A stretch of DNA of 11,793 nucleotides from a virus: positions 1 through 11,793 of the IMG/VR virus record IMGVR_UViG_3300022205_000042; one strand, written 5' to 3'. The translations under genes and the position numbers were made by a program. The notes under the pieces were generated by a model. The model was not told the origin of the DNA. It saw nothing but the letters and a program-made list of their open reading frames with translations, and made no database searches. This document shows positions 1 through 11,793 of the stretch, one piece after another. How positions within the stretch are numbered: position 1 is the stretch's first letter; every line of letters starts with the position of its first letter.

Positions 1-127
1 AAGATCTCTTCTGCTTTTTTTATTGCTGGGAGATTTTTTTCTTCTTTCTCTTCCGTTTGCTCTTCTGTTGTCTCCTCTGTTTGTTTTTCTGTTTCCTTTT
101 GTTGTGTTTCATTGTCTGTCATTTTTA
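1..127. repeat. Terminal direct repeat, copy 1 (identical to 11667-11793). Either a circular-closure overlap or a terminal redundancy.
   Basis: Read directly: 1-127 (aagatctcttctgc...tctgtcattttta) matches 11667-11793 base for base. On the minus strand it duplicates the first 122 nt of the gene at 11459-11788, with the start codon as cat at 120-122. A length of exactly 127 equals a common maximum k-mer in de Bruijn assemblers. Confidence 0.95.
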
Positions 128-1198
128 TTTCTTACCTCCAGAAGCTTCTCCTATTCCTGCTTCCATGTTATTTAACGACCTAGATTTACTTTGATCTTTT
201 TGCATTGTTTGTTCCAAACTTGCTGGGAACTCTAATTCAATTTTTATTCCTAATTGTATTTCGCATTGTTCTTCTATAAATAACTGATTCCATTCTATAG
301 CTTGTTGAAATGCCAGGTACAACATTTTTGCCATTGCTTCAGTATCTTCTTTTTCACCACTTCCAACAATTAATGATGGTACACCTTCAGCTATTATAAA
401 ATCTCTTTCTAATAGTGCAATATAAGGCATAGGATCTAGACTGCTATATTGTGGTATGCTCATTCTTTCCATTGCTTTTAGTGTGTCATGTGGAAGTACT
501 AAATTTTCTCCAAGTTCAACAGCTTTATCTAATTTTAATTTATATGCTGCTATTTCTGTTTCATCGTCTGTGTCTACGTGCGAAATTAGAAGAGGTTTAA
601 CATATCTGTGGAATAGGATCCTTAGATCTCTTTTTGATTCTTTGTAAGCTTCTGCGTTCCATTCCAATTTTTCACAAGTACCATTTCCGTGTATATTGTC
701 TGCAATTGGATTCCATGCCAGGTGAAACATTTGATCAGGTTTCCATCCATGTAAAGTTTTTCCATTAACAAATTGTTCATATCTTTTTATCATTCCTTTT
801 GAATCTGCTATTATTTTTATTGTACCTGGATTAAGTGATTTCAGATTTAATAATTTACCTTTGTGCATTATTTTTTCTGCAAAATAATCACCGCTAATTG
901 TATAGACTTTTACAGCATTATGTAGTATTGTATTGAAGGTCTGTTTACCATTTCCTTTTATTCCCTGTATTGTCTTTTTGTATTTCTTTTTTGCTCTAAA
1001 TCCTTTTCCTACAGTCCACATTGCTTTAGCATCAATTAAAGCTGCAAGTATTGGAACGTCTTTATATACACCGTACCACCTTTCCCACTCTGATTGGAAT
1101 TGCTCTTCGGTTGTTGTAGTGTCTTGATTTGCTGAATATGCAGTAACTACATTCGTCATGTTTGTGTAATCACCAGCTGAAATTTTTCCTTCTCCCAT
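125..1198 (-). CDS. Portal protein (357 aa)
   Basis: Full ORF with a strong SD (AGGAGGTAAAAATG, plus-strand 1199-1212). Portal-like motifs seen by eye are GDYFAEKI..LLNLKSLNPGTIKII.DSKGMIKRYEQ and FHLAWNPIADNIHGNG. It sits immediately upstream of the scaffold-like, DUF2190-like and capsid genes once the circle is closed. Confidence 0.72.
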   Translation of the reverse strand: MGEGKISAGDYTNMTNVVTAYSANQDTTTTEEQFQSEWERWYGVYKDVPILAALIDAKAMWTVGKGFRAKKKYKKTIQGIKGNGKQTFNTILHNAVKVYTISGDYFAEKIMHKGKLLNLKSLNPGTIKIIADSKGMIKRYEQFVNGKTLHGWKPDQMFHLAWNPIADNIHGNGTCEKLEWNAEAYKESKRDLRILFHRYVKPLLISHVDTDDETEIAAYKLKLDKAVELGENLVLPHDTLKAMERMSIPQYSSLDPMPYIALLERDFIIAEGVPSLIVGSGEKEDTEAMAKMLYLAFQQAIEWNQLFIEEQCEIQLGIKIELEFPASLEQTMQKDQSKSRSLNNMEAGIGEASGGKK

Positions 1199-1207
1199 TT
1201 TTACCTC

Positions 1208-2053
1208 CTAAGTTGCATTATTTGCAACTATTGATCCTGTTCCATTATCTGTGACATTTGCAACATTTGCAACACAAACTGTTTTATCTACGCCTGTGTC
1301 AATTAGTATTGTTCCAACAGTTGCACCGTCTCGTGTTCTATTACCTACTATCAAATTGTGTGATGCTGAAGTTAAACTTATTTCATCTAATTCTATGTCA
1401 TTGTCTGTGTTTGCATATGATGAATTGCTGTTTATTGTGCAGTCCCAACTATCTCTTAAATATATTCCATGTTCTGCATTATCAAAAATTTCATTTCCTG
1501 TGATTAATAATGATACACCTACAAATGTTTGTATACCAGCTCCAAAATTATCATGTATTATGTTGTTTACTAAAGTTGTTGATGTAGCTCCTGCTGAAAC
1601 TCTAATTCCATTATCGCCACAATTTTCTATCCAAACGTCATGTATTTTGACTTTTGGACCTCCAAAATTAAATATACCTTCATTTGTAGTATTTCCAGAT
1701 CCTGCGCCATATAACCACAGATTAGAAATAATTACACCTGTTTTTCCATTTATATAGATCATTTGTATGTTTTCAGAAGTTGTTATTTTTGTACCTCTGC
1801 CAGTACCATTAATGGAAACATTATCGTTGTCTATAAAAATTCTTGATGTTATGTCATATATACCTTCTTTTACATGTACTATTCCACCATCAGGTGGCAA
1901 TAAATTCACTGCTTCTTGTATATCGTCTGTGTCTCCAGTTCCATCTTTTGCAACAATAATTGTAGCGTGTCTTTTTTCTTTTCTAATACCAATATCTTTT
2001 TCTCTTTTATCTCTTTTGAAAAGATTAAATGATTCTGGTAGATTTAAAACCAT
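1208..2053 (-). CDS. Right-handed parallel beta-helix (pectate-lyase fold) protein. Possible tailspike, depolymerase or adhesin.
   Basis: The N-terminus IIVAKDGTGDTDDIQEAVNLLPPDGGIVHVKEGIYDI is typical of pectin-lyase-fold proteins. It is followed by PbH1-like repeats (NGIRVSAGATSTTLVNNIIHDNFGAGIQT..ITGNEIFDNAEHGIYLRDS..INSNSSYAN). The fold call is fairly safe; the function is an inference. Confidence 0.65.
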   Translation of the reverse strand: MVLNLPESFNLFKRDKREKDIGIRKEKRHATIIVAKDGTGDTDDIQEAVNLLPPDGGIVHVKEGIYDITSRIFIDNDNVSINGTGRGTKITTSENIQMIYINGKTGVIISNLWLYGAGSGNTTNEGIFNFGGPKVKIHDVWIENCGDNGIRVSAGATSTTLVNNIIHDNFGAGIQTFVGVSLLITGNEIFDNAEHGIYLRDSWDCTINSNSSYANTDNDIELDEISLTSASHNLIVGNRTRDGATVGTILIDTGVDKTVCVANVANVTDNGTGSIVANNAT

Positions 2054-2054
2054 T

Positions 2055-2414
2055 TTAAGCTACCTGCATATATGTGACTCTTTTTTGATCTCGGAATACT
2101 TCTTCTAGTTGTTTTAGTCTGAATAAATTTATATTCAACATATTTTCAGCTTCAATTCTTGAAGTATATCCTGCCATATTATACGCTATTAATGGAGCTG
2201 CAATAAATCTTCCAATATATTCATCAATAATATGTTTAACATCTTCATTTAGAGTTGAGTAATTATCAGCCCAATTATATCTTGACCAGGTGCAAATCTG
2301 ACTAATCGCCATTAATTCTAATGCTTCCTGATTTGCTGTTGTGTTTCCTGTTGCATCAACATTTTCTCCTGCAAAGATTGCGATCTTTGCCGCCGTTATT
2401 ATTACAAATGCCAT
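2055..2414 (-). CDS. Hypothetical structural protein (119 aa), possibly a head-tail connector or adaptor
   Basis: Compact ORF packed 1 nt from the downstream gene. Its start overlaps the stop of the upstream 44-aa ORF (TAATG). The functional guess rests only on its position between terminase and portal; I recognised no family. Confidence 0.5.
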   Translation of the reverse strand: MAFVIITAAKIAIFAGENVDATGNTTANQEALELMAISQICTWSRYNWADNYSTLNEDVKHIIDEYIGRFIAAPLIAYNMAGYTSRIEAENMLNINLFRLKQLEEVFRDQKRVTYMQVA

Positions 2415-2548
2415 TATTCATCACTCCATGCTTCTAGAACTGTTCTTCCTTCTACGAAAGTTTTTTTCCAATTTATATCTCCATCTTTTGATAAGTGATC
2501 TGACATTTTTTGTGCTTCTTTATCAAATAATTTAAATAATATTCTCAT
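2414..2548 (-). CDS. Small hypothetical protein (44 aa, MRILFKLFDKEAQKMSDHLSKDGDINWKKTFVEGRTVLEAWSDE); not in the supplied ORF track
   Basis: Hand translation of the minus strand. The ATG is cat at 2546-2548. The stop TAA shares one base with the ATG of the 119-aa gene (TAATG). A GGAGA lies about 14 nt upstream, and a GATAGCAAAAATAG promoter-like motif about 43 nt upstream. Confidence 0.35.
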   Translation of the reverse strand: MRILFKLFDKEAQKMSDHLSKDGDINWKKTFVEGRTVLEAWSDE

Positions 2549-2587
2549 TTTGCCATCATTTCTCCGTTCCAAGGATCTTTCCAGGAA

Positions 2588-2601
2588 CTATTTTTGCTAT
2601 C
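2588..2601 (-). promoter_or_regulatory. GATAGCAAAAATAG motif: weak BRE/TATA-like promoter candidate for the 44-aa/119-aa/beta-helix/portal operon
   Basis: Plus strand ctatttttgctatc. It shares GATAGCAAAA with the elements at 6225-6243 and 11440-11457. Its distance to the next ATG (2548) is similar at about 43 nt. The TATA part is degenerate. Confidence 0.3.
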
Positions 2602-2614
2602 AAAACTTCCGAGA

Positions 2615-2630
2615 TCCGGAGATCTCCGGA
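2615..2630. promoter_or_regulatory. Perfect 16-bp palindrome TCCGGAGATCTCCGGA
   Basis: Read directly; the sequence is its own reverse complement. It lies in the 142-bp gap between the terminase stop and the next promoter-like motif. It could be a dimeric protein binding site or a hairpin. Confidence 0.5.
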
Positions 2631-2648
2631 ACCCAAAATGCAAGCAAA

Positions 2649-2681
2649 ATTATACCCCCCTACCTTGTTTGGGGGTATAAT
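2649..2681 (-). terminator. Hairpin plus U-rich tail immediately downstream of the large terminase gene
   Basis: An 11-bp stem (2649-2659 attataccccc with 2671-2681 gggggtataat) and an 11-nt loop. On the minus strand it is followed by tttgcttgcattttggg. It begins 10 nt after the terminase stop (2691-2693). Confidence 0.5.
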
Positions 2682-2690
2682 GTTTGCGGG

Positions 2691-4157
2691 TTATGCAACG
2701 AACAATTTAAGTCCTTTGCTTTGCCAAGCCCAACAGCACCTTACGAACGCTTCGGCGAGATGCGTATACTTACCGTGAATTCGTAAGTTTCTGTCTTTTG
2801 TATACTCAAACTGTACGCTCTTCAAACTACGTAATAGCTTCAAGTTATTAATGATTTCTATATCTCCTTTTTCCATCATTGCAAGTGCATTACTGTATAG
2901 ATCCTCTTTGAGGATGCCTTTATTGCGTTCATCAGCTCCGAGACGGATACGCTTGCTAGCATTGTTGAGTCCGATAACTTTCGATTTTCCGAGTTCTTCT
3001 TGTAACAGATCAGTAAGCCCGCCTCCAACTCCTGTGTCATCGTTGAATATTCTTCTGAAGTTAAATTTTGAGTTAAGAGCCAGAGCATAATCTCTGAGGC
3101 TAGTGATAGCTTTTCCTGATATTTTTTTCTTTTCATCACAGTAAACCACCTTGTATTTTTTTCTTAGCATTTCACCAGCTACGAATGCAGCTTCGTCCTG
3201 ACCATATCTTGCAGGATCCATTCCCATGTAGTATGACGCGTTTGGATTATGATCTTTTTCTATGTCCCAGTTCATAAATGTCATACATTTCTTTATAAGG
3301 CTTGTCGGGAAAAATTGATTGAAATCGTCTGTAAATTCTGCCAGGTATTCTTGAGCATATTCTGCTTTGTTTAGTCTTTCTTTTTCTTTTGCCAAATAAT
3401 CTCTAGGGATTCTTGGACACATTTCTGAGCTTATATGCCAGTGTCTATAATCTTTGTCATAACAACAGTTGTAAAAGAATCCGCCTTTTCCAAATGGTGT
3501 TGATAGTAGTATGTCCCAGCCTAGTCCTCTTTTTTCTTTTTGGACTGCAAGCATTGGGTTTGTTGCAAGCCAGACCTCTTCAGGGATAAATGCAGCTTCA
3601 TCTGCTATCCTAAAATCTATGGTAAGCCCTCTTATGTATGCTCCTGTTTTTCCCGCAGGAAGCGAATATATGACGTATTCTTCGTCTCTTCTGAAATACT
3701 CCCAATCATTATCGCTTTCTAGTTTTCCCCAATTTGAGAACTTTTTAAGCCTTATCTCTGTTTTTGTAGGCATATTGTCAAAGACTCCCCAGCGTTTTTC
3801 ATGTTCCTTTTTCATAATTTTATTTTGCCTGGCTGATTTTTCAAGATCTTCTCTATATTTACCTTTCATATTTACAACAAAATCATTGAATCTTAGCAAT
3901 CTGGCCAGAACTTTATTAAAGATCAAGCCAGATTGTCTTTGAGAAGCTGCAATCATTAATGTTACTGTATTTTGGTATTTTAAAGATATCTTAGCTGCTT
4001 TTCTTGCAATAACAGTTGATTTTCCTACTTGTCGCCCACAACGTAATGCACAATCTCCTTCATGGTCCATGACCTGAATTTGCCACTTATCCAGAGCCAT
4101 ATCTGTCTCTTTTTCAAGTTCCTCGAATCTTAGATATAAGTCGTACCAGTTGTTCAT
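2691..4157 (-). CDS. terL: Terminase large subunit (488 aa)
   Basis: Walker A is CGRQVGKST, Walker B is IDFRIADEAAF, and the coupling motif is LSTPFG. RNase-H-like nuclease motifs are MGMDPARYGQDEAAFV, NDDTGVGGGLTDLL and the C-terminal HLAEAF. The start overlaps the upstream ORF stop (ATGA). Confidence 0.92.
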   Translation of the reverse strand: MNNWYDLYLRFEELEKETDMALDKWQIQVMDHEGDCALRCGRQVGKSTVIARKAAKISLKYQNTVTLMIAASQRQSGLIFNKVLARLLRFNDFVVNMKGKYREDLEKSARQNKIMKKEHEKRWGVFDNMPTKTEIRLKKFSNWGKLESDNDWEYFRRDEEYVIYSLPAGKTGAYIRGLTIDFRIADEAAFIPEEVWLATNPMLAVQKEKRGLGWDILLSTPFGKGGFFYNCCYDKDYRHWHISSEMCPRIPRDYLAKEKERLNKAEYAQEYLAEFTDDFNQFFPTSLIKKCMTFMNWDIEKDHNPNASYYMGMDPARYGQDEAAFVAGEMLRKKYKVVYCDEKKKISGKAITSLRDYALALNSKFNFRRIFNDDTGVGGGLTDLLQEELGKSKVIGLNNASKRIRLGADERNKGILKEDLYSNALAMMEKGDIEIINNLKLLRSLKSVQFEYTKDRNLRIHGKYTHLAEAFVRCCWAWQSKGLKLFVA

Positions 4158-4354
4158 GTTGAATTTTTCTCTCCAGCTTGGTAGCCAGCTTTATATCCTT
4201 TCCTGTATAATTTATTGCATTTTTCACATCTTAATTTTGTGATGCTACCTATGAATATATTTCTACATTCAATGCAAGTTTTTTTTATTATCGGCATACC
4301 TTTTATTTCTTTCATTTTCAGGTAGTTTATCCCAGATCTTTTTAAGTTCTTCAT
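4154..4354 (-). CDS. Small zinc-ribbon protein (CxxC...CxxC: CIECRNIF..RCEKCNKLY); start uncertain
   Basis: The track ORF starts at a TTG (4357). ATG candidates are at 4354, 4315 and 4297. The stop overlaps the terL ATG (ATGA), which suggests translational coupling. With the longest start it overlaps the upstream 68-aa ORF by up to 89 nt. Confidence 0.5.
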   Translation of the reverse strand: MKNLKRSGINYLKMKEIKGMPIIKKTCIECRNIFIGSITKLRCEKCNKLYRKGYKAGYQAGEKNST

Positions 4355-4475
4355 CAATGACTCTAAGATTTGCTTCAGCCATTCTTTGTGTTAATTGTGC
4401 TTGTCTCCACATATTCACTGCTGTATCTCTAGCGTTTTGCCAGTCCATTTCTTCTAATTTAACCAAAATTTTCAC
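4269..4475 (-). CDS. Hypothetical helical protein (up to 68 aa); start uncertain
   Basis: The track start is GTG at 4475, inside a GAGGTG that more likely serves as an SD. The alternatives are TTG at 4466 and ATG at 4448 (MDWQNARD...). No family recognised. Confidence 0.4.
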   Translation of the reverse strand: MKILVKLEEMDWQNARDTAVNMWRQAQLTQRMAEANLRVIDEELKKIWDKLPENERNKRYADNKKNLH

Positions 4476-4725
4476 CTCTTTTTATAAATCTCTCTAGTTT
4501 AACATTGAATTGTGTATATGATGCGAGAATGTTTTTTAATTCTAGTATTTCTTCTCTTTGATCTTCAATAATTTTACTCATATCATTGATTTTTTGAATT
4601 TGATTTTTAATAATACCTGGTGTTGCAAGAAATGCTTTTGACATTGCTTTTTCATCTAGTGTGATCATTAATTCATTGATTTCTTTTTCTTTCTCATCAT
4701 CGTATCTTATTGTCATTCCTTTCAT
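4459..4725 (-). CDS. Possible ribbon-helix-helix DNA-binding protein with a coiled-coil tail (88 aa)
   Basis: The N-terminus TIRYDDEKEKEINELMITLDEKAMSKAF looks like a beta strand plus helix-helix of CopG/Arc type. The C-terminal half is heptad-like (IEDQREEILELKNILAS). It could also be a small-terminase-like protein. Inference only. Confidence 0.35.
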   Translation of the reverse strand: MKGMTIRYDDEKEKEINELMITLDEKAMSKAFLATPGIIKNQIQKINDMSKIIEDQREEILELKNILASYTQFNVKLERFIKRGENFG

Positions 4726-4740
4726 TTTGATTGTAAATTC

Positions 4741-5391
4741 TCCCCCCCATCCCCCCTCTAGGGAATTAAGGTACGTTCTCTGCGTGCTTACGTCGCCGAA
4801 GGCGGGCTGCGCGAAAAATTTCTGTGTGTGTTAGGCTTTATTATCATAATCATAAAAAATATTTCTCTAGACACCTGGTTATGGGGGTGTTTTTGTTTGA
4901 AAGTCGCTAATAAGAGGAAGGACGTTGTCTCTATAAGCACCAAAACACCATAGAATATGGTGTTTTGGGGTGTTGTTGTTGTATATTTGGGGGTATTTGG
5001 GGTGTTGTTGTTGTGTTTGAGGCTTGGTTTTGCCTCAATAAAGCCCCCCCGGAGGGGGGGTTGGGGGGGACGAGCTCCCGACTTTGATAAGCTGAGACCT
5101 TGTCTCAGCATCTTTGACCCCGACCTAAAGCAGCGACGTTCCCCCTTCCCTTCAGGGAAGGGGGTTAGGGGGATGGGTGATATCATATAGCCGTGTAATT
5201 CATACCGTAGTCTTGTTCTCGGTAATGAATTATGCGGGACACAAGCGTTGTTCGAATTAAGCGCTGTGGATCGTGAAGACCGAAGGGATGAGGGACTGCG
5301 AATTTGGAGCGTATTTAGGTCGGGGGAAGGGTAGCTTTCCCCTTGACAAAATCTATTTTGTCTCGACACCAGGTGTATTCCTGCGACCGCG
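4741..5391. other. ORF-poor, GC-rich, highly self-complementary element: candidate large structured ncRNA and/or replication origin, class unknown
   Basis: Hand-counted GC is about 48% (57-67% across 5041-5160), against about 35% in flanking genes. Local hairpins: 4940-4968 (13 bp), 5044-5060 (C7/G7), 5091-5109 (8 bp), 5141-5164 (10 bp), 5323-5342 and 5345-5362. A 12-bp perfect long-range complement joins 5118-5129 and 5314-5325. The only long ORFs here have atypical, low-complexity translations. Confidence 0.55.
4964..5014. repeat. Two perfect 19-bp direct repeats TTTGGGGTGTTGTTGTTGT (4964-4982 and 4996-5014), period 32 bp
   Basis: Read directly. The repeats are separated by atatttgggggta. 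They lie about 100 bp from an AT-rich stretch (about 4838-4867, containing ATCATA x2). Confidence 0.85.
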
Positions 5392-5646
5392 TCAAAAGTA
5401 TTCGTCTTGTGTGGGTGACAACTTAAATCTTCTTGTCGGATGCACTCCAAATTCTCTCACCTTGTCTACTTCTTCCATTAGTTTCAGCCTGATCATTATC
5501 TCAATTGACTTTTTTACTGTTCTAGGATCTATGCCAATTTCAATAAATATTGCATCTTCCAATGCTTTAATGTTGAATGGTTCACTTTGGAATTCTTCCC
5601 TTATTCTCTGGGCTACTCTTTTATATTTGACTAATCCTTTGCTCAT
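5392..5646 (-). CDS. Putative winged-helix DNA-binding protein (84 aa)
   Basis: The segment NIKALEDAIFIEIGIDPRTVKKSIEIMIRLKLMEEV looks like helix-turn-helix plus wing. The start overlaps the stop of the upstream zinc-ribbon ORF (ATGA). The fold call is by eye. Confidence 0.45.
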   Translation of the reverse strand: MSKGLVKYKRVAQRIREEFQSEPFNIKALEDAIFIEIGIDPRTVKKSIEIMIRLKLMEEVDKVREFGVHPTRRFKLSPTQDEYF

Positions 5647-6192: not shown

Positions 6193-6224
6193 TTTATCAC
6201 CTATTTCAAAGAAAATGCAATCAT

Positions 6225-6243
6225 ATTTATAAATTTTGCTATC
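6225..6243 (-). promoter_or_regulatory. BRE/TATA-like promoter GATAGCAAAATTTATAAAT for the 133-aa/zinc-ribbon/wHTH operon
   Basis: Minus-strand reading of plus atttataaattttgctatc. The TATA centre is about 37 nt upstream of the ATG at 6192, and the SD AGGTGA lies between them. It is near-identical to the element at 11440-11457. Confidence 0.6.
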
Positions 6244-6275
6244 AAAATAACACTTTTTGGTAGTATGTATGTCAT

Positions 6276-6356
6276 CACTGCGAAGCAGTGTTTAGAAAGA
6301 AATTAGATTTCAGGAAAACCGAAGTTTTCCCTCAATCTGTTTTCTGCATCAGAAAA
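6276..6356. other. Three tandem perfect hairpins in the large non-coding region
   Basis: Hairpin 1 is 6276-6290 (cactgc gaa gcagtg). Hairpin 2 is 6313-6330 (ggaaaac cgaa gttttcc), which on the minus strand reads as a C(UUCG)G tetraloop. Hairpin 3 is 6340-6356 (ttttctg cat cagaaaa). Their function is unknown. Confidence 0.6.
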
Positions 6357-6400
6357 TAATCAATTAGAATATATAAATCTTTCTATCCTGCAAACACAAA

Positions 6401-6410
6401 GTATATATAC
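6401..6410 (+). promoter_or_regulatory. TATA-like box (gtatatatac) about 26 nt upstream of the plus-strand ATG at 6432; candidate leaderless promoter
   Basis: The spacing from the TATA centre to the ATG is about 26-27 nt, which matches archaeal TATA-to-TSS spacing. No SD lies between them. The region is AT-rich, so chance TATA-like strings are common. Confidence 0.35.
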
Positions 6411-6431
6411 AACAATACAAAAGGACAATTT

Positions 6432-6569
6432 ATGCAGATATTGTATAAAAACAGTTTTCTAGAATTTCTAAGAAGAGGGAAACCTTCTGACACTTATACC
6501 CTCTATGTTGCAAAGGTGAGTAATTTTCTAAATTCTCTAATTTGCAGGGTAGAGAAGGGGCAAAGATAA
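6432..6569 (+). CDS. Plus-strand mini-ORF (45 aa, MQILYKNSFLEFLRRGKPSDTYTLYVAKVSNFLNSLICRVEKGQR). Resembles the N-terminal SAM-like core-binding segment of tyrosine recombinases; could be a remnant or a small regulator.
   Basis: Hand translation. The pattern F-LEFL-R-G-S-DT---Y---V--FL resembles the XerC/D and phage-integrase N-terminal motif. No catalytic domain follows. It is the only plausible plus-strand gene. Confidence 0.3.
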   Translation: MQILYKNSFLEFLRRGKPSDTYTLYVAKVSNFLNSLICRVEKGQR

Positions 6570-6638
6570 CTTAGATAACTAACTGTTTTTACTATTATAA
6601 AATAGTCCTAATTCTCTAATTATATAATAATAATAGTA

Positions 6639-6661
6639 GGGGGGTTTGGGGGGATTTTTTT
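6639..6661 (+). terminator. GGGGGGTTTGGGGGG followed by T7: possible oligo-T terminator for the plus-strand mini-gene
   Basis: Read directly: G6 at 6639-6644, G6 at 6648-6653, T7 at 6655-6661. There is no complementary C-run for a bacterial-type hairpin, so only an oligo-T (archaeal-style) termination model fits. Confidence 0.3.
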
Positions 6662-6872
6662 CTTTGCATAGGAAATGAAGGTTTTATAAAGAAAACTATT
6701 ATGATAGCATTATGGTGATTGCAAGATCTTCCAGGAGAGTAATTTTGCTATCAATTTAAAGATGGCCAGAATTTATTCGAAGAAAAAATGCCATCACTGG
6801 AAAGCATCACCAAAACCAGTGACGGCAAAATGTTATATTTTGATTAAATAGGGTGGTCTTTTTGATGTAAAT

Positions 6873-7127
6873 CTATGTTAATTTAGCAATTCCTGATCTA
6901 AGACCCATAAAAGCCAATCCTTCAAGTATTGTTCTTACCCCTTCTTGTTGTCCTAACTTGCCAAGAAATAGCCCTAATAAGCCCCATACGATTAGTCCAA
7001 AGCCAATTGCGTATGTTCTGTTACCTTCAAGTTCTTTGAAAATATGAACTATTGCATTATGTTCACTTTTTTTACTTTTATTTTTTAGATGTAATTCAAC
7101 ATCAATTTCAGTTTCTTTTTTATCCAT
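6873..7127 (-). CDS. Small membrane protein (84 aa); a holin-like role is possible
   Basis: It has the hydrophobic helix YAIGFGLIVWGLLGLFLGKL, a second amphipathic segment, and a charged N-terminus. It is the last gene of the long minus-strand operon and overlaps the upstream gene by 8 nt. Confidence 0.5.
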   Translation of the reverse strand: MDKKETEIDVELHLKNKSKKSEHNAIVHIFKELEGNRTYAIGFGLIVWGLLGLFLGKLGQQEGVRTILEGLAFMGLRSGIAKLT

Positions 7128-8496
7128 TAAAACTCCCTCCTGAATTTATATGTAATTCGCAGCCTGAGTTTATATAGACAAATTGATTTGTCCCAGTAAA
7201 CGTCCAATCTGCAGAAAGATAATTAATTCCGGATCCTGACATTGTTATATTTCCAGGTATAGTATCAGCACTAGACCAATCACAATTATCGCTACAATCG
7301 ACTGTATAGTCCCCTGATGCAGGCGGTGTGCAAGTGTCACTGACGTTTCCTTGTTCTACTACGAACCCAGAATCATTAAACTGTGTTATTAATGAATTAT
7401 TTATTGATGTTTCATTGCAAATGAAAACATTATCAGCGTGACCATGAAATACATTAGCATTTACGTTGTCTTGTCCTCCAATTAAATATGCTGCATTATT
7501 GTTTACTGAACCTGTTGATGCATCACATTGTTTTTGGATTCCGTCTACATATATACAAATGTGACTTGAATTATATGTGCATACAATATTGTGCCATAAT
7601 CCGTCTGTTTCATCAATTGCTCCTGAACTTTGAACTAGTGTATCAGTTAGTCCTTGAAATTCACATTTTGGTCTATTATCTGCATATACAATTTGGATTA
7701 ATGTAGTTCCTCCTATGACATAAGGTATTGTAGATCCACTGCTTGAATTTAATTTTATATGTGCCCCAAAGGACATTGTGGATCCAAAAGTAATTGTACC
7801 TGCATATTCAATTGTATTATCATTGTTATCAACACCATCATTTTCAGTACAATTTTGTTGCCAGCATGTACTTCCTGTTATATATTTTGGATATCCATTA
7901 GCTGCATTATCAAAAGTTAGATCTCTACCTTGGCTACCTCTGTCAACTACTCCACTTTGTGAAGTATCATCCATAAAATATAATGAACAATCATCAGGGA
8001 AATTTTCGTCTGTAAATTCGTAGTCAATTATTGTTGGATCGTATATTCCTTCTGTAATTACTTGGAATGTGTAATCATTTAATATATTAATTTTTACTGC
8101 ATCACGTAGTGTTTCGTATGTTTTGTTTTTTACTGTTTTATTGTATGGAATCCATTTGTTAGGGTAGTATAATGCAACACCGTTACATCCTAAGTTTCTT
8201 CCTTCTCTTTTAATTTTACAGTTTACTTTAACTGTTTCTATTGTAGATTTTAAATATCCATATTCTTTAGTTTTCCATATATCTTTTATTTGGTAGATTT
8301 TTGCAGTAGATTTAATCTTAAATGTTACGTTATTTTTTGTTAAGTTCATTTCATATGGAGATATCATTTTCAAATATTCACCATCTTTAAGGATCCTGTC
8401 AGATTCAATTGGAGAAAAATCTTCGATAATAGCAGCTTTTGTCATATAGCCAGCTAGAAGTAATGCTATTATCGAAGCTATGAGTATTTTTTTCAT
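7120..8496 (-). CDS. Secreted or membrane-anchored protein with a LamG/concanavalin-A-like lectin domain (458 aa); likely adhesion or receptor-binding
   Basis: The N-terminal signal-like segment is MKKILIASIIALLLAGYMTKAA. The LamG-type signature is DGLWHNIVCTYNSSHICIYVDGIQ...AYLIGG. The C-terminal part is Cys-rich (DTCTPPASGDYTVDCSDNCDW). SD is AGGTGA. Confidence 0.6.
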   Translation of the reverse strand: MKKILIASIIALLLAGYMTKAAIIEDFSPIESDRILKDGEYLKMISPYEMNLTKNNVTFKIKSTAKIYQIKDIWKTKEYGYLKSTIETVKVNCKIKREGRNLGCNGVALYYPNKWIPYNKTVKNKTYETLRDAVKINILNDYTFQVITEGIYDPTIIDYEFTDENFPDDCSLYFMDDTSQSGVVDRGSQGRDLTFDNAANGYPKYITGSTCWQQNCTENDGVDNNDNTIEYAGTITFGSTMSFGAHIKLNSSSGSTIPYVIGGTTLIQIVYADNRPKCEFQGLTDTLVQSSGAIDETDGLWHNIVCTYNSSHICIYVDGIQKQCDASTGSVNNNAAYLIGGQDNVNANVFHGHADNVFICNETSINNSLITQFNDSGFVVEQGNVSDTCTPPASGDYTVDCSDNCDWSSADTIPGNITMSGSGINYLSADWTFTGTNQFVYINSGCELHINSGGSFNG

Positions 8497-9453
8497 TCAA
8501 TTCACCTTTATAATCAGGGTAGTTGAATTTGCTCTTATGTATGCAGTTGTTCCGAATGATATATTTGAAGTATTCATGTCATGGTTATACATCTTTCCGC
8601 CTGTCCAGGTATCATCTTCAACTACAAGATCTGCTCCTGTTGCAGAAGTGTCACAATCAACAGTTGATGTTATGTTTGAGCATAGGTTGCTTTTTCCACT
8701 TCCTATTCTTACGCTTCCACTGCTCCAGAATCTATTGTGTCCTGTTCCTCCTTCATAGAAATTCATTTCTGTATCTGCTCCTTGTGTTTCAGATATAGCA
8801 AGCATCAAGTAATCGTTACTTGGTCCAGGATTTGCGTATAAATCCATAAAAGCACCTGTTGTATGTATTCCAAAATAGTTGCTTCCTTCTACATCACTAT
8901 CTATGTGCAAATCGTCATTTATTGCATTGAGTGTGAATCCAAGTCCGTTTGCTTTGTATCTTCCAATGCTTGCATTGCCAGTGATGTTAAAATCACCATC
9001 ATTTGCATAATTTAAATATGCAACATTTCCATCTGAACAGGATCCTGTAGCATTACAGTTTGAATCTGAAGCAGCTCCAACTCCTGTTAATTTAGATCCA
9101 TCACCATAGTAAAAATCTGCAGTTATATTATCTACTGCAGTAATTGATCCATTAACTGTTAAGGATCCATTTATGAAAAGTTCGTTGTTACTTGTGTAAA
9201 GGGCTAAGCCTCCTAGAATGATCATACTAGACAGTACAGCGATCATGGCATATACATTTTTCCATCTTTTTGCTGTAGATCCTAGATCGTATGTATTATC
9301 AACAGCTGCTAAAACATCTTCTGTAATATTTCCAAGATCTGAACCAGTTAAAGAATCAGCATAAGTTTTATTTACAACATCATTGCCATTCACAGGCGTT
9401 TTCTCTACGCTTAACTCTTGAAACGCTCCTGATTTTTCGACTATGTCTGGCAT
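8497..9453 (-). CDS. Tail-fibre-like protein (318 aa)
   Basis: It carries the motifs NTYDLGSTAKRWKNVY and FYYGDGSKLTGV, which I associate with phage fibre N-terminal regions, then Gly/Asn/Ser/Thr-rich beta-type sequence. The hydrophobic stretch AMIAVLSSMIILGGLALY is unusual for a fibre. Confidence 0.55.
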   Translation of the reverse strand: MPDIVEKSGAFQELSVEKTPVNGNDVVNKTYADSLTGSDLGNITEDVLAAVDNTYDLGSTAKRWKNVYAMIAVLSSMIILGGLALYTSNNELFINGSLTVNGSITAVDNITADFYYGDGSKLTGVGAASDSNCNATGSCSDGNVAYLNYANDGDFNITGNASIGRYKANGLGFTLNAINDDLHIDSDVEGSNYFGIHTTGAFMDLYANPGPSNDYLMLAISETQGADTEMNFYEGGTGHNRFWSSGSVRIGSGKSNLCSNITSTVDCDTSATGADLVVEDDTWTGGKMYNHDMNTSNISFGTTAYIRANSTTLIIKVN

Positions 9454-9535
9454 TTTAGGATGGGTAAGCAGTTTTTCGAGTTGCTCAGCTCAGAGTTCTG
9501 CAGTGGGCATGGATCGCCCAAGAACTATCTTAAAA

Positions 9536-9727
9536 TTAAGATTCTTGCACTGAGGTAATTAATTCCCAGCTTGTTGCTGCAGCAGCTGAAGCAGTACAGA
9601 AACATAATTTATCTTGTGTTGTGTCATAAATAATTGTTCCCTTTTCTGCAATCAGAGTATTTCTTACTGCAGTTGTCATTTTAGGTACAATTAAAGCACT
9701 TGGGTTAAGTGGTTCTCCAGCCATCAT
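9536..9727 (-). CDS. Small hypothetical virion-associated protein (63 aa)
   Basis: ATGA overlap with the upstream gene. The motif PKMTTAVRNTLIAEKGTIIYDTTQDKL...W resembles a short module I recall from bacterial and phage surface or fibre proteins. That recollection is unverified. Confidence 0.45.
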   Translation of the reverse strand: MMAGEPLNPSALIVPKMTTAVRNTLIAEKGTIIYDTTQDKLCFCTASAAAATSWELITSVQES

Positions 9728-9915
9728 GCACCAGCTCTTACTATCTTATATATCATCACTTGCGTTCCGTTTGCTATCGGAACTACTTGGAATGTTGTAG
9801 TGTCTGCTCCTGCAGTTGCAGCGCCAGTACTTTCAGAATCCATTGCAGTTTTTATTGCTGCAGCATCAACTGCATATGGACCCATTGTCGTCCATGTTAT
9901 ATCTCCAACTGCCAT
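9724..9915 (-). CDS. Small hypothetical protein (63 aa), Ala/Thr-rich
   Basis: Translationally coupled on both sides (TAATG upstream, ATGA downstream). No family recognised. Its position suggests a head-completion or neck component. Confidence 0.45.
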   Translation of the reverse strand: MAVGDITWTTMGPYAVDAAAIKTAMDSESTGAATAGADTTTFQVVPIANGTQVMIYKIVRAGA

Positions 9916-10127
9916 TATTTATCACCTGGTTTTTTATGTTCACCTGGTTTTTTTTCTTCAGGTTTTTGATGGTCTATCCTGCCATGTTCCTCTATGTATT
10001 CTGGAACATATTTTGCAAGATCTTTGTTTTTCTCTAACTTTGCTTTAGCTTTTGGAACGCCTTCATCTACATCTTTTTTAAGTTGTAGATAATGTGCTGC
10101 TAATCTCATTCTTGTTGCTTTAGTCAT
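9915..10127 (-). CDS. Small basic hypothetical protein (70 aa) with a Lys/Glu/Pro-rich tail
   Basis: It starts 1 nt after the capsid gene stop (TAAAATG). The C-terminus contains KPEEKKPGEHKKPGDK. No family recognised. Confidence 0.45.
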   Translation of the reverse strand: MTKATRMRLAAHYLQLKKDVDEGVPKAKAKLEKNKDLAKYVPEYIEEHGRIDHQKPEEKKPGEHKKPGDK

Positions 10128-10128
10128 T

Positions 10129-11001
10129 TTAAGCCCTCGTGTTAGAAATTAAGCATATTGCTTCGGGATCTGTGAGTTGTGTTACTCCAATTTCCCATGC
10201 TCTTACTACTGTGTGAACTCCTGGTTCTCTTTTTGTAACTACTGTTAGCGGATCAACTGCTTTCCATGTAGCAGCTTGTTTTTTTATGCCTACCATAGCA
10301 TAATCTGCTGTTACATTGTTGCTTTTTATTACGTCTAAACCGACTAATCTTCCGATTTTTCCGTTTCTTGTGACATCATCAGTCCAGAACTGACCTGCAT
10401 TTCTGACGTTTGCATTACCAAGCAATTTTGCAATGTCGGTTCCATTCGCTATGAAGAAACCGTCTGAGTCAGGATCATAGTTATCTGCATCTATAAGAGC
10501 TTTTGCGTCTAGTAGATTTTGAATAGGATCTCTATTTGCAACAGTTGCTGAATCCCATTCAGAGCCTGCTGCTATTGCAAGACTGTTAATGTTTGATGGA
10601 CTTTGACTTTCTGAGATTACATCCCAAATTTCAGCGTCTACTGATTTAACAACTCCTCTTGCTATTCTTAAGAGTGTTCTTGCTATTACATCAACAGCAT
10701 TTGTTTTCTCATCTTCGTATGAGATAACACCTTGTAAACCATGTTTAACTTGTCTACTGCTTTGTTTTGTCCAGGTTACTTCTGCATGAGGAAATTTAGC
10801 TAGTCTAGCTACTCCTTTTACATTTCTTGTTCCGCTTGCAGAAAGATCTGCTGCGGTTTCTTGGTAGTAGCTTTCAGTCCATGCTGAACTACCAACTGTC
10901 ATAACCAATGCTTTAAATTTATAATTTGCTAAAGCAAATCCTTTAACTATTCTTGAAACATTTTCTGCCCTTAAATCTGCCATTCCTGTTGAGTCTGCCA
11001 T
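10129..11001 (-). CDS. Major capsid protein, HK97-fold type (290 aa)
   Basis: Its position directly follows the scaffold-like and DUF2190-like genes, and both its size and composition are typical of compact HK97-fold capsid proteins. The SD AGGTG is embedded in the end of the upstream gene. The family call rests on context and general resemblance. Confidence 0.7.
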   Translation of the reverse strand: MADSTGMADLRAENVSRIVKGFALANYKFKALVMTVGSSAWTESYYQETAADLSASGTRNVKGVARLAKFPHAEVTWTKQSSRQVKHGLQGVISYEDEKTNAVDVIARTLLRIARGVVKSVDAEIWDVISESQSPSNINSLAIAAGSEWDSATVANRDPIQNLLDAKALIDADNYDPDSDGFFIANGTDIAKLLGNANVRNAGQFWTDDVTRNGKIGRLVGLDVIKSNNVTADYAMVGIKKQAATWKAVDPLTVVTKREPGVHTVVRAWEIGVTQLTDPEAICLISNTRA

Positions 11002-11002
11002 T

Positions 11003-11404
11003 TTACACCTTTATCCTGCATTGGATTACTTCACTTGCTGATGCTGTTTCCAACGCATATCCACATACTGTTCCGCCTTCTGCTTCACCTGCAGCTACTT
11101 GTTTTACAAGGTTTGCTCCACCAACTGTTATTGGAAGACCCACTGTAATTCCAGCACCTGAGTCTTTTATATCAAATATACCATTTGTATATACTCCAAG
11201 TGTTGTCTGTCCATCACTTGCGACTTTTTCTGTTGCTGCAATACCAATAAGAATATCTCCATCTGCAGAAGTTGCAGCTCCTGTTCTAGGATCACTCAGT
11301 TTTAAGAGTGTACCTTTTTCTATTGTTGCTCCATCTGCTACTGTAACTTCTATAACGTCTCCCTCATTTCCTAATAATTCAACTATGACTGCTTCATTTG
11401 CCAT
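11003..11404 (-). CDS. DUF2190-like protein (head decoration or capsid-associated), 133 aa from the ATG at 11404
   Basis: The pattern GTLLKLS...GDILIGIAATEKVASDGQTTLGVYTNGIFDIK...ITVGLPITV...GYALETASASEVIQCRIKV matches my memory of DUF2190 proteins found just upstream of capsid genes. The track start at 11407 is a TTG. The ATG at 11404 sits 5 nt after GAGGTG. Confidence 0.6.
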   Translation of the reverse strand: MANEAVIVELLGNEGDVIEVTVADGATIEKGTLLKLSDPRTGAATSADGDILIGIAATEKVASDGQTTLGVYTNGIFDIKDSGAGITVGLPITVGGANLVKQVAAGEAEGGTVCGYALETASASEVIQCRIKV

Positions 11405-11439
11405 CAAAACACCTCAATTAAAAAAATAATTGAAACTAG

Positions 11440-11457
11440 TATATAAATTTTGCTATC
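11440..11457 (-). promoter_or_regulatory. BRE/TATA-like promoter GATAGCAAAATTTATATA for the capsid/fibre operon
   Basis: Minus-strand reading of plus tatataaattttgctatc. The TATA centre is about 40 nt upstream of the ATG at 11404, with GAGGTG between them. It lies in the only gap (51 nt) between the scaffold-like and DUF2190-like genes. Confidence 0.6.
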
Positions 11458-11458
11458 T

Positions 11459-11788
11459 TTAGTCAGGGAACGCCATTTTCTCAAATCCAGTTCCTTTTAG
11501 CAAATTTTTTGCACCTTCAATTTCTTTTTCTTCCTCAGTAGGTTGATGTACTTGACCAAATCCGCCCATCTTTGCCTCTGCAGCTGCTTTATCAAATTCC
11601 TGTATTTTTAGATCTAATGCTTTTTCTTTTTCTTCTAGAGCTTTTCCTCTATCTTCAATTTTCTGCAAGATCTCTTCTGCTTTTTTTATTGCTGGGAGAT
11701 TTTTTTCTTCTTTCTCTTCCGTTTGCTCTTCTGTTGTCTCCTCTGTTTGTTTTTCTGTTTCCTTTTGTTGTGTTTCATTGTCTGTCAT
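11459..11788 (-). CDS. Scaffolding-like protein (109 aa), highly charged and coiled-coil
   Basis: It has a Glu/Lys/Thr/Gln-rich N-terminus and heptad-like helices (AEEILQKIEDRGKALEEKEKALDLKIQEF). It lies between the portal gene (across the circular junction) and the capsid genes. Its first 122 nt are duplicated at 1-122. Confidence 0.5.
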   Translation of the reverse strand: MTDNETQQKETEKQTEETTEEQTEEKEEKNLPAIKKAEEILQKIEDRGKALEEKEKALDLKIQEFDKAAAEAKMGGFGQVHQPTEEEKEIEGAKNLLKGTGFEKMAFPD

Positions 11789-11793
11789 TTTTA
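11667..11793. repeat. Terminal direct repeat, copy 2 (identical to 1-127)
   Basis: See copy 1; exact 127-nt identity read directly. Confidence 0.95.

Follow-up and report, generated by a model that had tools for sequence, protein, structure and literature searches.

An 11.7-kb genome of an extremely small head-tail-type virus, probably archaeal, from a large undescribed family

The 11,793-nt IMG/VR record IMGVR_UViG_3300022205_000042, analysed here over its whole length (the window), is a complete viral genome of 11.7 kb. With its relatives, about 9.4-12 kb in size, it forms a large virus family that is so far undescribed. The genome's 20 genes, all on the minus strand (Table 1), include a set that builds a small HK97-fold capsid and a classical terminase that would package DNA into it, together with receptor-binding-type proteins. 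The window is best explained as the genome of a dsDNA virus of the head-tail type (realm Duplodnaviria) that is uncultivated and extremely small; with its proposed host, replication and packaging included, this account is given a probability of about 0.6.

Table 1. Features of the window, in order of position
Feature	Positions	Strand	Basis
Terminal overlap	1..127	.	copy of 11667-11793; closes contig into 11,666-bp unit
Portal protein, 357 aa	125..1198	-	phrog_9232 portal at 4e-9
Right-handed beta-helix protein, 281 aa, tailspike or depolymerase type	1208..2053	-	PF13229 at 6e-19
Probable head-tail adaptor, 119 aa, cluster c1	2055..2414	-	fold matches of AF2 model
52-aa ORF	2414..2572	-	ORF list; also called in L006
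Large terminase subunit (TerL), 488 aa	2691..4157	-	PF03237 at 6.5e-6, phrog_2 at 3e-33
Three small ORFs between island and TerL	4154..4725	-	ORF calls in window and L006
Zn-ribbon protein	4154-4315/4357	-	weak zinc-ribbon matches
68-aa protein	4269-4475	-	ORF call
88-aa coiled-coil protein	4459-4725	-	weak coiled-coil matches
GC-rich structured non-coding island	4726..5391	-	GC profile, folding, synteny
84-aa protein, cluster c9	5392..5646	-	adjoins GC-rich island, directly upstream
CxxC zinc-finger protein, 53 aa	5643..5804	-	weak CxxC-family matches
OB-fold SSB-like DNA-binding protein, 133 aa, cluster c18	5791..6192	-	AF2 pLDDT 81, Foldseek
AT-rich conserved non-coding region (nc2)	6193..6872	-	alignment with relatives
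84-aa protein, one hydrophobic helix	6873..7127	-	hydrophobic 19-mers starting at residues 37-41
LamG/concanavalin-like protein, 458 aa	7120..8496	-	PF13385 at 1e-10
Fibre-like protein, 318 aa	8497..9453	-	weak tail-fibre PHROG matches, phrog_19602 at 0.016
Three small ORFs after capsid gene, 63/63/70 aa, clusters c60/c28/c21	9536..10127	-	
HK97-fold major capsid protein (MCP), 290 aa	10129..11001	-	PF25209 at 4e-11, phrog_1650 at 9e-26
Capsid decoration/cement protein, about 133 aa	11003..11407	-	PF09956 at 3.5e-9, phrog_122 head decoration
Scaffold-like acidic coiled-coil protein, 109 aa	11459..11788 (closed: 11459..122)	-	position between portal and capsid genes

Genome closure and completeness

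The first and last 127 bases of the window are identical, 127 nt being the longest exact overlap, and closure leaves a unit of 11,666 bp with a GC content of 35%. Closure also restores the gene order, as the first-pass annotation had proposed: the portal stop codon (125-127) is followed after 2 nt by the start of the scaffold-like gene, at position 122. That annotation read the overlap as either closure of a circle or terminal redundancy, and asked whether an assembler k of 127 lay behind it. An independent assembly, contig k141_1517937 of ENA ERZ27296354 (L006; 11,807 bp), contains the same 11,666-bp unit with a single mismatch, overlaps by 141 nt and is broken elsewhere, at window coordinate 5125. 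The overlaps of closed relatives measure 30, 96, 99, 123, 127 or 141 nt, lengths that resemble an assembler's k or k-1 to judge by how the contigs are named (k141_, for example). Because both overlap length and break point differ in L006, the overlap tracks assembler k; the 127 nt are therefore read as k on a cyclic path, and of the two earlier options closure is retained while physical terminal redundancy is dropped.

An overlap equal to k proves by itself just a cyclic path in the assembly graph, and a repeat could have closed an incomplete fragment of a larger genome into an artefactual circle. This explanation is already largely refuted and very improbable. Two assemblers working at different k gave one unit, and the gene order runs unbroken over the junction. 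Including the window's own genome, 14 loci close, at 9,434-11,925 bp, so that 13 relatives agree with it in size. A 17.3-kb contig is concatemeric, covering 1.7 units that repeat every 10,052 bp, and hundreds of related contigs end below 12.7 kb, the length of the longest non-concatemer among the contigs listed as bearing TerL or the adaptor. A GTDB scan of 185,579 species genomes found no chromosomal copies of close relatives, only contigs of at most 11.3 kb. Taken together, these observations make completeness well supported, and the suggestion that the sequence is part or an island of a larger genome fails.

The search for relatives in metagenomes, proposed in the first-pass annotation together with a check for embedding, uncovered a large family and, in the species genomes scanned, no prophage or satellite island within a chromosome. 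It comprises more than 2,200 TerL relatives and 383 IMG/VR loci, and a profile search with the adaptor-like protein yielded 790 clusters at 50% identity. The genome is of a size that fits a small capsid: for T=3, the mean length expected from a published model is 11.8 kb (PMC7762592).

Capsid, portal and packaging genes

Profile matches bear out the large terminase, portal, HK97-type capsid and DUF2190-like proteins named in the first-pass annotation, the last of these through PF09956, presumably the former DUF2190. The portal is present in 85 of 90 loci, and orthologues in relatives match PF04860. Across 34 relatives, TerL keeps a Walker A-type motif, GRQVGKS, and acidic residues unchanged. 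The N-terminal ATPase domain is established by profile and structure matches, including one at 9e-5 to the P74-26 TerL structure 4zni, and a C-terminal nuclease domain is suggested by the conserved acidic residues and the full length of the protein. Among isolates, TerL is matched best over its full length by that of Halogranum tailed virus 1 (27.5% identity), and the MCP is about 26-28% identical to those of Bacillus siphophages. The scaffold-like protein (cluster c5, in 70 loci) matched no Pfam or PHROGs profile, and a maturation protease was found nowhere in the genome; the capsid set consists of portal, protease-less scaffold-like protein, MCP and decoration protein. By their position, the three ORFs at 4154-4725 are candidates for TerS-like or DNA-binding partners.

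Neck and receptor-binding proteins

The 119-aa protein, found in 89 of 90 loci, is probably a neck or head-tail adaptor. Its AF2 model (pLDDT 90.6) is all-helical, and its best PDB match in Foldseek is a P74-26 neck chain (9oab_Ea; probability 0.92, at a weak E-value of 0.26). Matches in BFVD include a Gordonia phage 'Head-to-tail adaptor' (probability 0.87) and an unnamed protein (TM 0.80, with an E-value of 1.3e-3 that is likewise weak). The beta-helix and LamG-like proteins named earlier are confirmed by their Pfam matches. The former also matches pectinesterase, NosD, tail-spike PHROGs and TIGR03804, and the latter is hydrophobic at its N-terminus, much like a signal peptide. The earlier fibre-like call for the 318-aa protein, which has no PDB sequence match, is weakly supported. 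Beta-helix spike, LamG, PTL_trimer and depolymerase-like domains are found in genomes of the family. The term 'head-tail' is used here in the sense of the neck adaptor and these receptor-binding-type proteins, and reaches just that far.

Missing functions and small DNA-binding proteins

Searches against Pfam, PHROGs and NCBIfam recognised no polymerase, primase, helicase, Rep or integrase in the window and no tail tube, tape measure, baseplate or endolysin, in agreement with the first-pass annotation, and no hidden polymerase or Rep emerged among the ORFs. A tail nozzle was recognised neither in the window nor in relatives. Among 83 representative proteins of at least 140 aa from relatives, Pfam likewise identified no replication, integration or lysis enzymes and no tail tube, tape measure, baseplate or nozzle, just an RNase_T/DnaQ-like exonuclease, SNase, HNH, C5-methylase, wHTH, LamG and beta-helix.

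The claim that replication genes are missing holds for polymerase and Rep, with one qualification: the window encodes an SSB-like protein with an OB fold, and small proteins of the winged-helix and zinc-finger kinds. These fit the earlier proposal that replication relies on the host together with non-coding elements and small DNA-binding proteins. Structure prediction and Foldseek, recommended earlier for every ORF, gave functions to two hypothetical proteins: the probable adaptor and the 133-aa SSB-like protein. For the latter the top match is PrgE of pCF10 (E 1e-4, probability 1.0), followed by SsbA and RPA OB folds; the cluster occurs in 29 loci, and two orthologues match phrog_378 SSB at 4e-4. 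The 84-aa protein beside the island (56 loci) gave no significant profile match, carries a G-T-D/N-x-R-T motif conserved in the sequences listed and, from its sequence pattern, is probably a winged-helix DNA-binding protein. A point against replication by the host is that no initiator was identified, although most small dsDNA viruses that depend on the host replisome reportedly encode one.

Conserved non-coding regions

Two conserved non-coding regions occupy 11.5% of the genome. The genome averages 35% GC, whereas the island reaches up to 56% over 200 nt; its folding z-scores are -5.6 and -7.0. Perfect hairpins abound in it, C7-AA-C7-TCC-G7 at 5044-5069 among them, and it also holds AGAGAAATATTTTTTATGA at 4870-4850, which resembles a promoter or terminator. 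The C-run motif has 25 occurrences on the coding strand and none on the other. There is no match in Rfam, and a GC-rich island fills the matching syntenic slot in all 44 relatives tested. Its position, structure and conservation make it the most likely candidate for a packaging-recognition or origin element. The 220-aa ORF located there lacks both codon periodicity (GC1/2/3 = 0.45/0.48/0.49) and homologues. The island lies directly upstream of the packaging genes (the small ORFs and TerL).

Over about 490 nt, the AT-rich region nc2 shares some 68% identity with the relatives L002 and L041, and it has no ORF under any stop-codon reassignment. It holds a terminator-like hairpin, TGATRRCA repeats and C6-AAA-C6, and AGTTATCTAAGTTATCTTTGCC is invariant in the alignment. 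A BRE/TATA-like AGAAAGATTTATATA is located at 6384-6370, a stem-loop with a UUCG tetraloop at about 6339-6303 (two compensatory pairs in four sequences), and a second TATA-like element at 6244-6224, ahead of the OB-fold gene.

Host and dependence on a helper

The host is probably an archaeon of the DPANN group, of the Pacearchaeota type. Three of the four closest hits in genome collections lie in MAGs labelled 'uncultured archaeon' or Candidatus Pacearchaeota, and the three closest MAG matches with a firm label are all archaeal (two of them Pacearchaeota), labels that rest on binning, which is error-prone for small circular contigs. A bacterial host for such a mini virus, for example a small-genome Patescibacteria/CPR lineage, is considered unlikely. 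Other relatives are binned as Bacteroidota or Saccharibacteria, with Elusimicrobiota and Glassbacteria among the source labels; Shine-Dalgarno-like sequences precede about 12 of 20 genes; the MCP is nearest to those of Bacillus siphophages; and the TerL ATPase and adaptor resemble Thermus phage P74-26. Against these points stand the archaeal labels of the closest firmly labelled matches and the haloarchaeal origin of the nearest isolate TerL. By eye, the promoter-like elements also fit BRE/TATA much better than -35/-10; AGAAAGATTTATATA matches the archaeal BRE+TATA consensus and is identical in four of five aligned W-lineage genomes (L040/L122 differs). A tRNA (49 bits) in L096, a relative with a TerL identity of just 47%, has an insertion of about 21 nt in the anticodon loop, the archaeal type of tRNA intron. 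The family-wide absence of endolysin from representative proteins of relatives is easier to reconcile with hosts that have no peptidoglycan.

Less probable than the main account, though far more so than an assembly artefact, is that the genome is a capsid-forming satellite. It would then package itself by means of the small capsid, portal, adaptor and terminase that it encodes, but take a tail, and perhaps replication functions, from a co-infecting larger tailed virus, like capsid-forming PICIs. The missing tail tube, tape measure, baseplate and nozzle, in the window and the 83 representative proteins, would agree with such dependence, as would the lack of an initiator and the size of 9.4-12 kb, which falls where satellites and HK97-type mobile elements are reported to lie (10.1101/2025.06.18.659913). 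The 119-aa protein, present in almost every locus and closest in fold to siphovirus neck proteins, might dock onto a foreign tail, but would equally suit a minimal tail of the virus's own. Known PICI-type satellites have an integrated lifestyle, whereas here no integrase was recognised in the window or the representative proteins, and no integrated copy among the 185,579 species genomes. Members of the family bring their own receptor-binding-type proteins, which known capsid-forming satellites usually lack. No helper came to light, and the family is in its own right highly abundant and diverse.

Proposed life cycle

For an autonomous virus, attachment to a small-celled host, most likely a Pacearchaeota-type DPANN archaeon, would be mediated by the spike and fibres. 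The host replisome would replicate the viral DNA, recruited to one or other conserved non-coding region with the help of the OB-fold SSB-like, winged-helix and zinc-finger proteins. Replication would yield concatemers, which the terminase would cut and package as linear DNA, by headful or at a defined site; such packaging would explain why the assemblies close into a circle. Particles may leave the cell through the action of the small membrane protein, a route that would not require a peptidoglycan hydrolase. The 84-aa protein at 6873-7127, which matches no family in Pfam, PHROGs or NCBIfam, is a candidate holin by its size, topology and place at the end of the structural block.

Other small genes

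The 52-aa ORF has no family matches. The clusters c60, c28 and c21 of the three small ORFs after the capsid gene are present in 4, 14 and 22 loci, respectively, and the 63-aa protein at 9536-9727 has a tail-fibre-type N-terminal motif (phrog_30742 tail fibre at 0.003).

A tailed-virus lineage with a reduced gene set

The window and its relatives form a family of 9.4-12 kb genomes, best classed as tailed viruses whose gene set is unusually reduced and not as a categorically new entity. On the boldest reading, which we consider rather unlikely at a probability of about 0.3, these would be the smallest autonomous terminase-packaging tailed viruses, a new lineage of family rank or higher that would infect DPANN archaea and build T=3-size capsids without any replication enzyme or conventional tail. 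The genome would then depend for propagation and packaging on the GC-rich island, a conserved structured element that lacks an Rfam counterpart and carries a length-matched C-run/C-run/G-run motif, which could form an intramolecular C+.G-C triple helix, and, in many relatives, a TCGCTnCGCTC hairpin. The picture with the best support is a minimal virus reduced to head, packaging machine, neck and adhesins; DNA synthesis would be left to the host, and terminase would cut viral DNA from concatemers.

Among cultivated tailed phages, the smallest (about 11.6-11.7 kb) are without exception phi29-like and encode a protein-primed polymerase; that tailed viruses even smaller or simpler than these are lacking has been treated as a puzzle, 'the missing tailed phages' (PMC7762592). 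The present family is a second, unrelated lineage that reaches the same or smaller size; it is very widespread, packages with a classical terminase and has dropped all replication enzymes and, it appears, the tail tube. If autonomous, it would define a minimal gene set for a head-tail virus, with T=3-size HK97 capsids as a prediction.

Closure and completeness of the genome

The first 127 bases of the window equal its last 127, the longest exact overlap, leaving a unit of 11,666 bp at 35% G+C. The first-pass annotation took this overlap to mean either closure into a circle or a terminal redundancy. The same genome in an independent ENA assembly (L006, contig k141_1517937, 11,807 bp) has the identical 11,666-bp unit, with one mismatch to the window, but its overlap is 141 nt and its contig breaks at window coordinate 5125. 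In closed relatives the overlaps measure 30, 96, 99, 123, 127 or 141 nt. These lengths, including the 127 nt of the window, appear to be assembler k or k-1 values, as contig names such as k141_ support. The overlap therefore shows a cyclic assembly graph, as expected of a circular, circularly permuted or concatemeric genome, and is no sign of a physical repeat; a direct terminal repeat of 127 nt is rejected. Closing the circle also gives the sensible gene order that had been pointed out, the scaffold-like gene starting 2 nt past the portal stop.

Fourteen loci close to units of 9,434-11,925 bp, namely the window's own genome (L006) and 13 relatives. That the unit is an assembly artefact instead of a complete genome is essentially excluded. 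One related ENA scaffold (L001, 17,311 bp), the sole one of the listed contigs beyond 12.7 kb, is a head-to-tail concatemer of 1.7 units that repeats every 10,052 bp; its two copies are only 93% identical, so that it is either an assembler-joined pair of strains or a real heteroconcatemer.

Gene content

Twenty credible genes, all on the minus strand, cover 86% of the unit. Profile searches bear out the terminase (TerL), portal, HK97-type capsid, LamG and beta-helix proteins named by the first-pass annotation, and identify its DUF2190-like protein as a decoration or cement protein (PF09956). [quoted passage not shown] TerL has a Walker A-type motif and conserved acidic residues, and its ATPase domain matches PDB 4zni; the acidic residues together with protein length suggest a nuclease domain as well. 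A 109-aa acidic protein is putatively scaffold-like, judging from gene position and conservation in 70 related loci. Neither the profile searches of the window nor those of 83 family representatives give a family match to a capsid maturation protease. This does not bar membership of Caudoviricetes, since several accepted tailed phages (P22, T7, phi29) are not known to have one either.

Two small proteins were modelled. The 133-aa protein adopts an OB fold whose closest structure is PrgE of plasmid pCF10, an SSB-like OB-fold protein, followed by bacterial SsbA and archaeal RPA domains, and two of its orthologues match an SSB PHROG. The 119-aa protein gives a helical model (pLDDT 90.6), which structurally comes closest, at weak E-values, to a P74-26 phage neck chain and to a 'head-to-tail adaptor' from a siphophage; with moderate confidence, it is probably a head-tail adaptor. 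PDB sequence searches with the portal, the 318-aa fibre-like protein and the profiles of the adaptor-like (c1) and OB-fold (c18) clusters returned nothing useful. The LamG protein begins with a hydrophobic segment like that of a signal peptide, an unusual feature if a virion protein is to be assembled in the cytoplasm. Within the fibre-like protein, residues 66-88 form a hydrophobic stretch. Hidden genes read through a recoded stop codon are ruled out: all three stops terminate genes, and the AT-rich region has no long ORF under any reassignment.

Positions of features in the window and in related loci (L-numbers)
Feature	Position	Strand	Remark
119-aa adaptor-like protein	window 2055-2414	minus	
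133-aa OB-fold protein	window 5791-6192	minus	
LamG protein	window 7120-8496	minus	
318-aa fibre-like protein	window 8497-9453	minus	
Candidate holin, 84 aa	end of structural block	minus	one hydrophobic helix
GC-rich island	window 4726-5391		non-coding
220-aa ORF	window 4788-5450		rejected as a gene
C7-AA-C7-TCC-G7	window 5044-5069 (5069->5044)	coding strand	instance of triple-run motif
G6-AT-G7	window 4741-4756		just upstream of 88-aa gene
AT-rich region	window 6193-6872		non-coding
BRE/TATA-like AGAAAGATTTATATA	window 6384-6370		
Stem-loop after AGAAAGATTTATATA	window 6339-6303		
Second TATA-like box	window 6244-6224		preceded by TGATAGCAAAA
TGATRRCA pairs	window 6796/6753 and 2602/2558		
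TCGCTnCGCTC hairpin	L007 6839-6863, L074 2176-2200, L117 3791-3815		examples
DnaQ/RNase_T-type exonuclease or staphylococcal-nuclease-like genes	L002 5725-6270, L001 7945-8514, L122 3522-4085		cluster 8 in 60 loci
tRNA-Pro (ARAGORN)	L096 5556-5650		49 bits against Rfam tRNA

Missing functions

The absence of recognisable replication, integration, tail and lysis genes, already remarked on from the sequence, persists under profile searches: Pfam, PHROGs and NCBIfam find no polymerase, primase, helicase, Rep, integrase, tape measure, tube, baseplate or endolysin in the window. Across the family, a Pfam scan of 83 representative proteins of at least 140 aa likewise finds no replication enzyme, initiator, integrase or endolysin. 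The protein-primed family-B DNA polymerase of small tailed phages, which the first-pass annotation had also called absent here, and its terminal protein have no match in the window with the same three collections or family-wide. Sequence profiles show no tail tube, nozzle or tape measure, structure models covering two proteins; the tail-related genes seen are the probable adaptor and the spike, fibre or LamG proteins. Rfam includes a pRNA family, and no pRNA match appears at E up to 1 in the window or at gathering score in 13 closed relatives.

There is likewise no sign of an integrated state. An integrase is missing, and a scan of 185,579 species, with one genome for each, shows no embedded copy, which speaks against a prophage or chromosomal island. 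In the same scan, no close relative (TerL identity of 38% or more) sits on a contig longer than 11.3 kb, and none is part of a chromosome.

The wider family

A search for relatives returns more than 2,200 TerL relatives at an E-value of 0.001 or better among the candidates scored, and the longest TerL-bearing contigs among the matches listed cluster at 10-12.4 kb. In IMG/VR, an alignment-based scan finds 383 related loci, and the contigs of the 80 that were retrieved are no longer than 12.7 kb; a single-protein scan with TerL gave nothing. The adaptor-like protein alone forms 790 clusters at 50% identity. Members of the family are already deposited as unannotated contigs in public collections, and no description of the family was found in the literature.

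Clustered ORFs of 90 loci give a collinear, one-directional layout. TerL is followed by the adaptor, a variable slot (staphylococcal-nuclease-like protein, beta-helix protein and others) and the portal, then often by a protein of about 430 aa with a hydrophobic core and a coiled coil, and by the scaffold, decoration and capsid proteins. After the capsid gene come small proteins, variable spike, fibre or LamG proteins, small DNA-binding proteins, the GC-rich island and further small proteins, leading back to TerL. The small DNA-binding proteins have an OB fold or a winged helix, and some relatives encode an HTH protein of about 270 aa or a DnaQ-like exonuclease.

Two kinds of extra gene occur in many relatives and are absent from the window: a DnaQ/RNase_T-type 3'-5' exonuclease directly upstream of TerL and, as an alternative, a staphylococcal-nuclease-like protein between adaptor and portal. 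The adaptor domain also forms the C-terminus of many proteins of about 285-290 aa. In the representative search, the adaptor-like profile (residues 51-92) matched 25 times in P0252, a giant predicted protein of 6,824 aa that is probably a repeat or assembly artefact.

Virus or satellite

The main rival to an autonomous virus is a satellite that forms its own capsid and joins it, through the adaptor, to the tail of a helper, an explanation we consider rather unlikely while giving it serious weight. It would account for the absence of tube, nozzle and tape measure, for an adaptor of siphovirus type and for the failure to find an initiator. Set beside a satellite-type gene set, the genome has the capsid and packaging module and no tail tube, together with spike- and fibre-type genes; that these last are the genome's own speaks against a satellite, as do the missing integrase and integrated stage and the great abundance of the family by itself. 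The closest satellites in kind are capsid-forming phage-inducible chromosomal islands (cfPICIs) and elements such as P4, which are small (about 10-15 kb) and have small capsids. Like the window, where the adaptor is probable and profiles show no tail tube, cfPICIs encode capsid, portal, adaptor and terminase but no tail. They sit integrated in the host genome with an integrase and replication or primase genes, and a helper induces them; P4 (11.6 kb) is not known to have capsid genes of its own. In the present family, by contrast, integration, integrase and replication or primase genes were not found, whereas spike- and fibre-type genes are carried. If the family were nonetheless made up of satellites, it would stand beside the capsid-forming kind as an archaeal or small-cell equivalent, without an integrated stage. 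Either way, it may give a view of viruses of DPANN-type hosts.

Comparison with known systems

The phi29-like small podoviruses (Salasmaviridae and relatives) are, like the window, about as small as tailed viruses get; Astrithrvirus (11.6-11.7 kb) and Mycoplasma phage P1 (11.7 kb) are phi29-like and have the protein-primed polymerase (PMC11476376, PMC7762592). Common to them and the window are an HK97-fold capsid, a portal, a scaffold without a recognised protease and receptor-binding appendages (PMC11476376, PMC7762592). However, phi29-like phages replicate by their own protein-primed family-B polymerase and terminal protein, of which the window has neither. Their packaging ATPase depends on pRNA. 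They package unit-length DNA, whereas the window encodes a full-length classical terminase, in which the ATPase domain is matched and the nuclease domain putative, and gives no Rfam RNA match. No sequence relationship to phi29-like phages is detectable, as none of them turned up when the phage collection was searched with TerL and MCP.

None of 50,697 phage records holds a close TerL relative. The best full-length match in an isolate is Halogranum tailed virus 1 (HGTV-1), at 27.5% identity over 94% of the protein. HGTV-1 and the window probably share a host domain, but HGTV-1 differs in its 144-kb genome, full tail and many replication genes. Published genome maps of DPANN (nanohaloarchaeal) tailed viruses show a major tail protein, tape measure, baseplate and family-B DNA polymerase (10.1101/2025.02.15.638363).

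The 'twilight-zone' survey of IMG/VR contigs of 20 kb or less with terminal repeats and tailed-virus marker genes (Aguilar et al. 2025 preprint; 10.1101/2025.06.18.659913) used the same kind of data as the present work and addressed the same question of the minimum size of HK97 viruses. The clade it reports lacks portal, terminase and tail genes and has integrases, RepA-like genes and encapsulin-like capsid proteins (10.1101/2025.06.18.659913). The present family, of which no description was found in that preprint, has portal and terminase and lacks integrase and Rep.

A search for plasmid relatives in cultured hosts led only to pSR11-type plasmids. The small extrachromosomal element pSR11 of Salinibacter ruber (11.2 kb) encodes an ATPase of the terminase family that aligns with the N-terminal half of the window TerL at 28% identity, along with a P4-family primase and ParA, and has no annotated capsid or portal gene; such plasmids are another kind of element.

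Host

Indirect evidence favours archaea of DPANN type as hosts. Three of the four closest genome-collection matches are in MAGs labelled 'uncultured archaeon' or Candidatus Pacearchaeota, the best isolate TerL match is haloarchaeal, and the promoter-like elements fit BRE/TATA. The family-wide lack of endolysins fits hosts without peptidoglycan. Against an archaeal host, some relatives fall in bins with the labels Bacteroidota, Saccharibacteria, Elusimicrobiota or Glassbacteria; the binning of small circles into MAGs is unreliable.

The only tRNA in the 90 related loci, a tRNA-Pro in L096, has about 21 extra bases in its anticodon loop, which we take to be an intron of the archaeal type and position and count among the pointers to archaea.

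Non-coding regions

The GC-rich island and the AT-rich region make up 11.5% of the genome. The island, a conserved structured element that by itself accounts for about 5% of this tiny genome, is dense in hairpins, reaches 50-56% G+C and folds far better than shuffled controls on either strand. It is present in 44 of 44 relatives that have both the 84-aa winged-helix-like gene and a downstream TerL; in these, a 200-nt window within the gene interval exceeds the genome mean by 10-28 GC points. The same syntenic slot is seen in L002, L007, L040, L041, L069, L079, L115, L122, L123 and other loci; the ORFs of 119-305 aa that gene callers assign to it are spurious and unrelated to one another. The 220-aa ORF of the window is not a hidden gene, having flat codon-position GC, no homologues and no likeness to the ORFs called at this slot in relatives. 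Nor does the island match a known RNA (group I/II intron, GOLLD/ROOL, pRNA, tmRNA or tRNA): Rfam gives nothing at E up to 1, no tRNA is called, and 13 closed relatives are without an Rfam match either. Its position directly before the small genes and TerL makes the island the best candidate for a packaging signal or replication origin.

Two motifs recur at this site. The triple-run motif consists of C5-9, a 1-6 nt spacer, C5-9, a 2-7 nt loop and G5-9; it has 25 copies on the coding strand against none on the other, in 21 of 93 loci (the window and 20 related). The second C-run equals the G-run in length in 19 of 21 and the first in 16 of 21 (r = 0.74-0.78), a match that would suit the geometry of an intramolecular pyrimidine-motif (C+.G-C) triple helix. 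In the window, C7-AA-C7 could alternatively pair with G6-AT-G7. The other motif is a hairpin with the invariant 11-nt loop TCGCTnCGCTC, found in 30 of 93 loci (39 copies on the coding strand, 4 on the opposite), 170-1340 nt upstream of TerL, and not found in the window itself. Its stems differ in sequence yet remain complementary: 69.7% of cells are paired, against 41.6 +/- 3.3% in shuffles, and the covariation score is 0.60, against 0.19 when shuffled (reached by 0 of 500 shuffles) and 0.11-0.24 in slid controls.

The AT-rich region is about 68% identical along some 490 nt to relatives with 65-75% identical TerL, and contains invariant blocks, among them the direct repeat AGTTATCTAAGTTATCTTTGCC. 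The sequence AGAAAGATTTATATA, identical in 4 of 5 aligned genomes, reads as an archaeal BRE plus TATA box. The stem-loop that follows ends in a C(UUCG)G tetraloop in two genomes and shows compensatory changes in others, the comparison covering only four sequences; it is possibly a small RNA or structured leader. A search for further copies of the conserved blocks recovered known loci only, so that this covariation comes from 4-5 sequences. By these signs the region may serve as a promoter, regulatory or origin region. A second TATA-like box lies further on, with TGATAGCAAAA before it.

The octamer TGATRRCA is over-represented 5-12-fold genome-wide in the window and relatives, with most copies on the coding strand. 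Part of the enrichment comes from stop-start overlaps (TGA/ATG-GCA), and the non-coding copies adjoin TATA-like boxes, for which reason they are read as promoter-associated sites, not as origin-specific repeats (iterons). The octamers often come in pairs about 44 nt apart, and in L002 the variant is TGATAACA.
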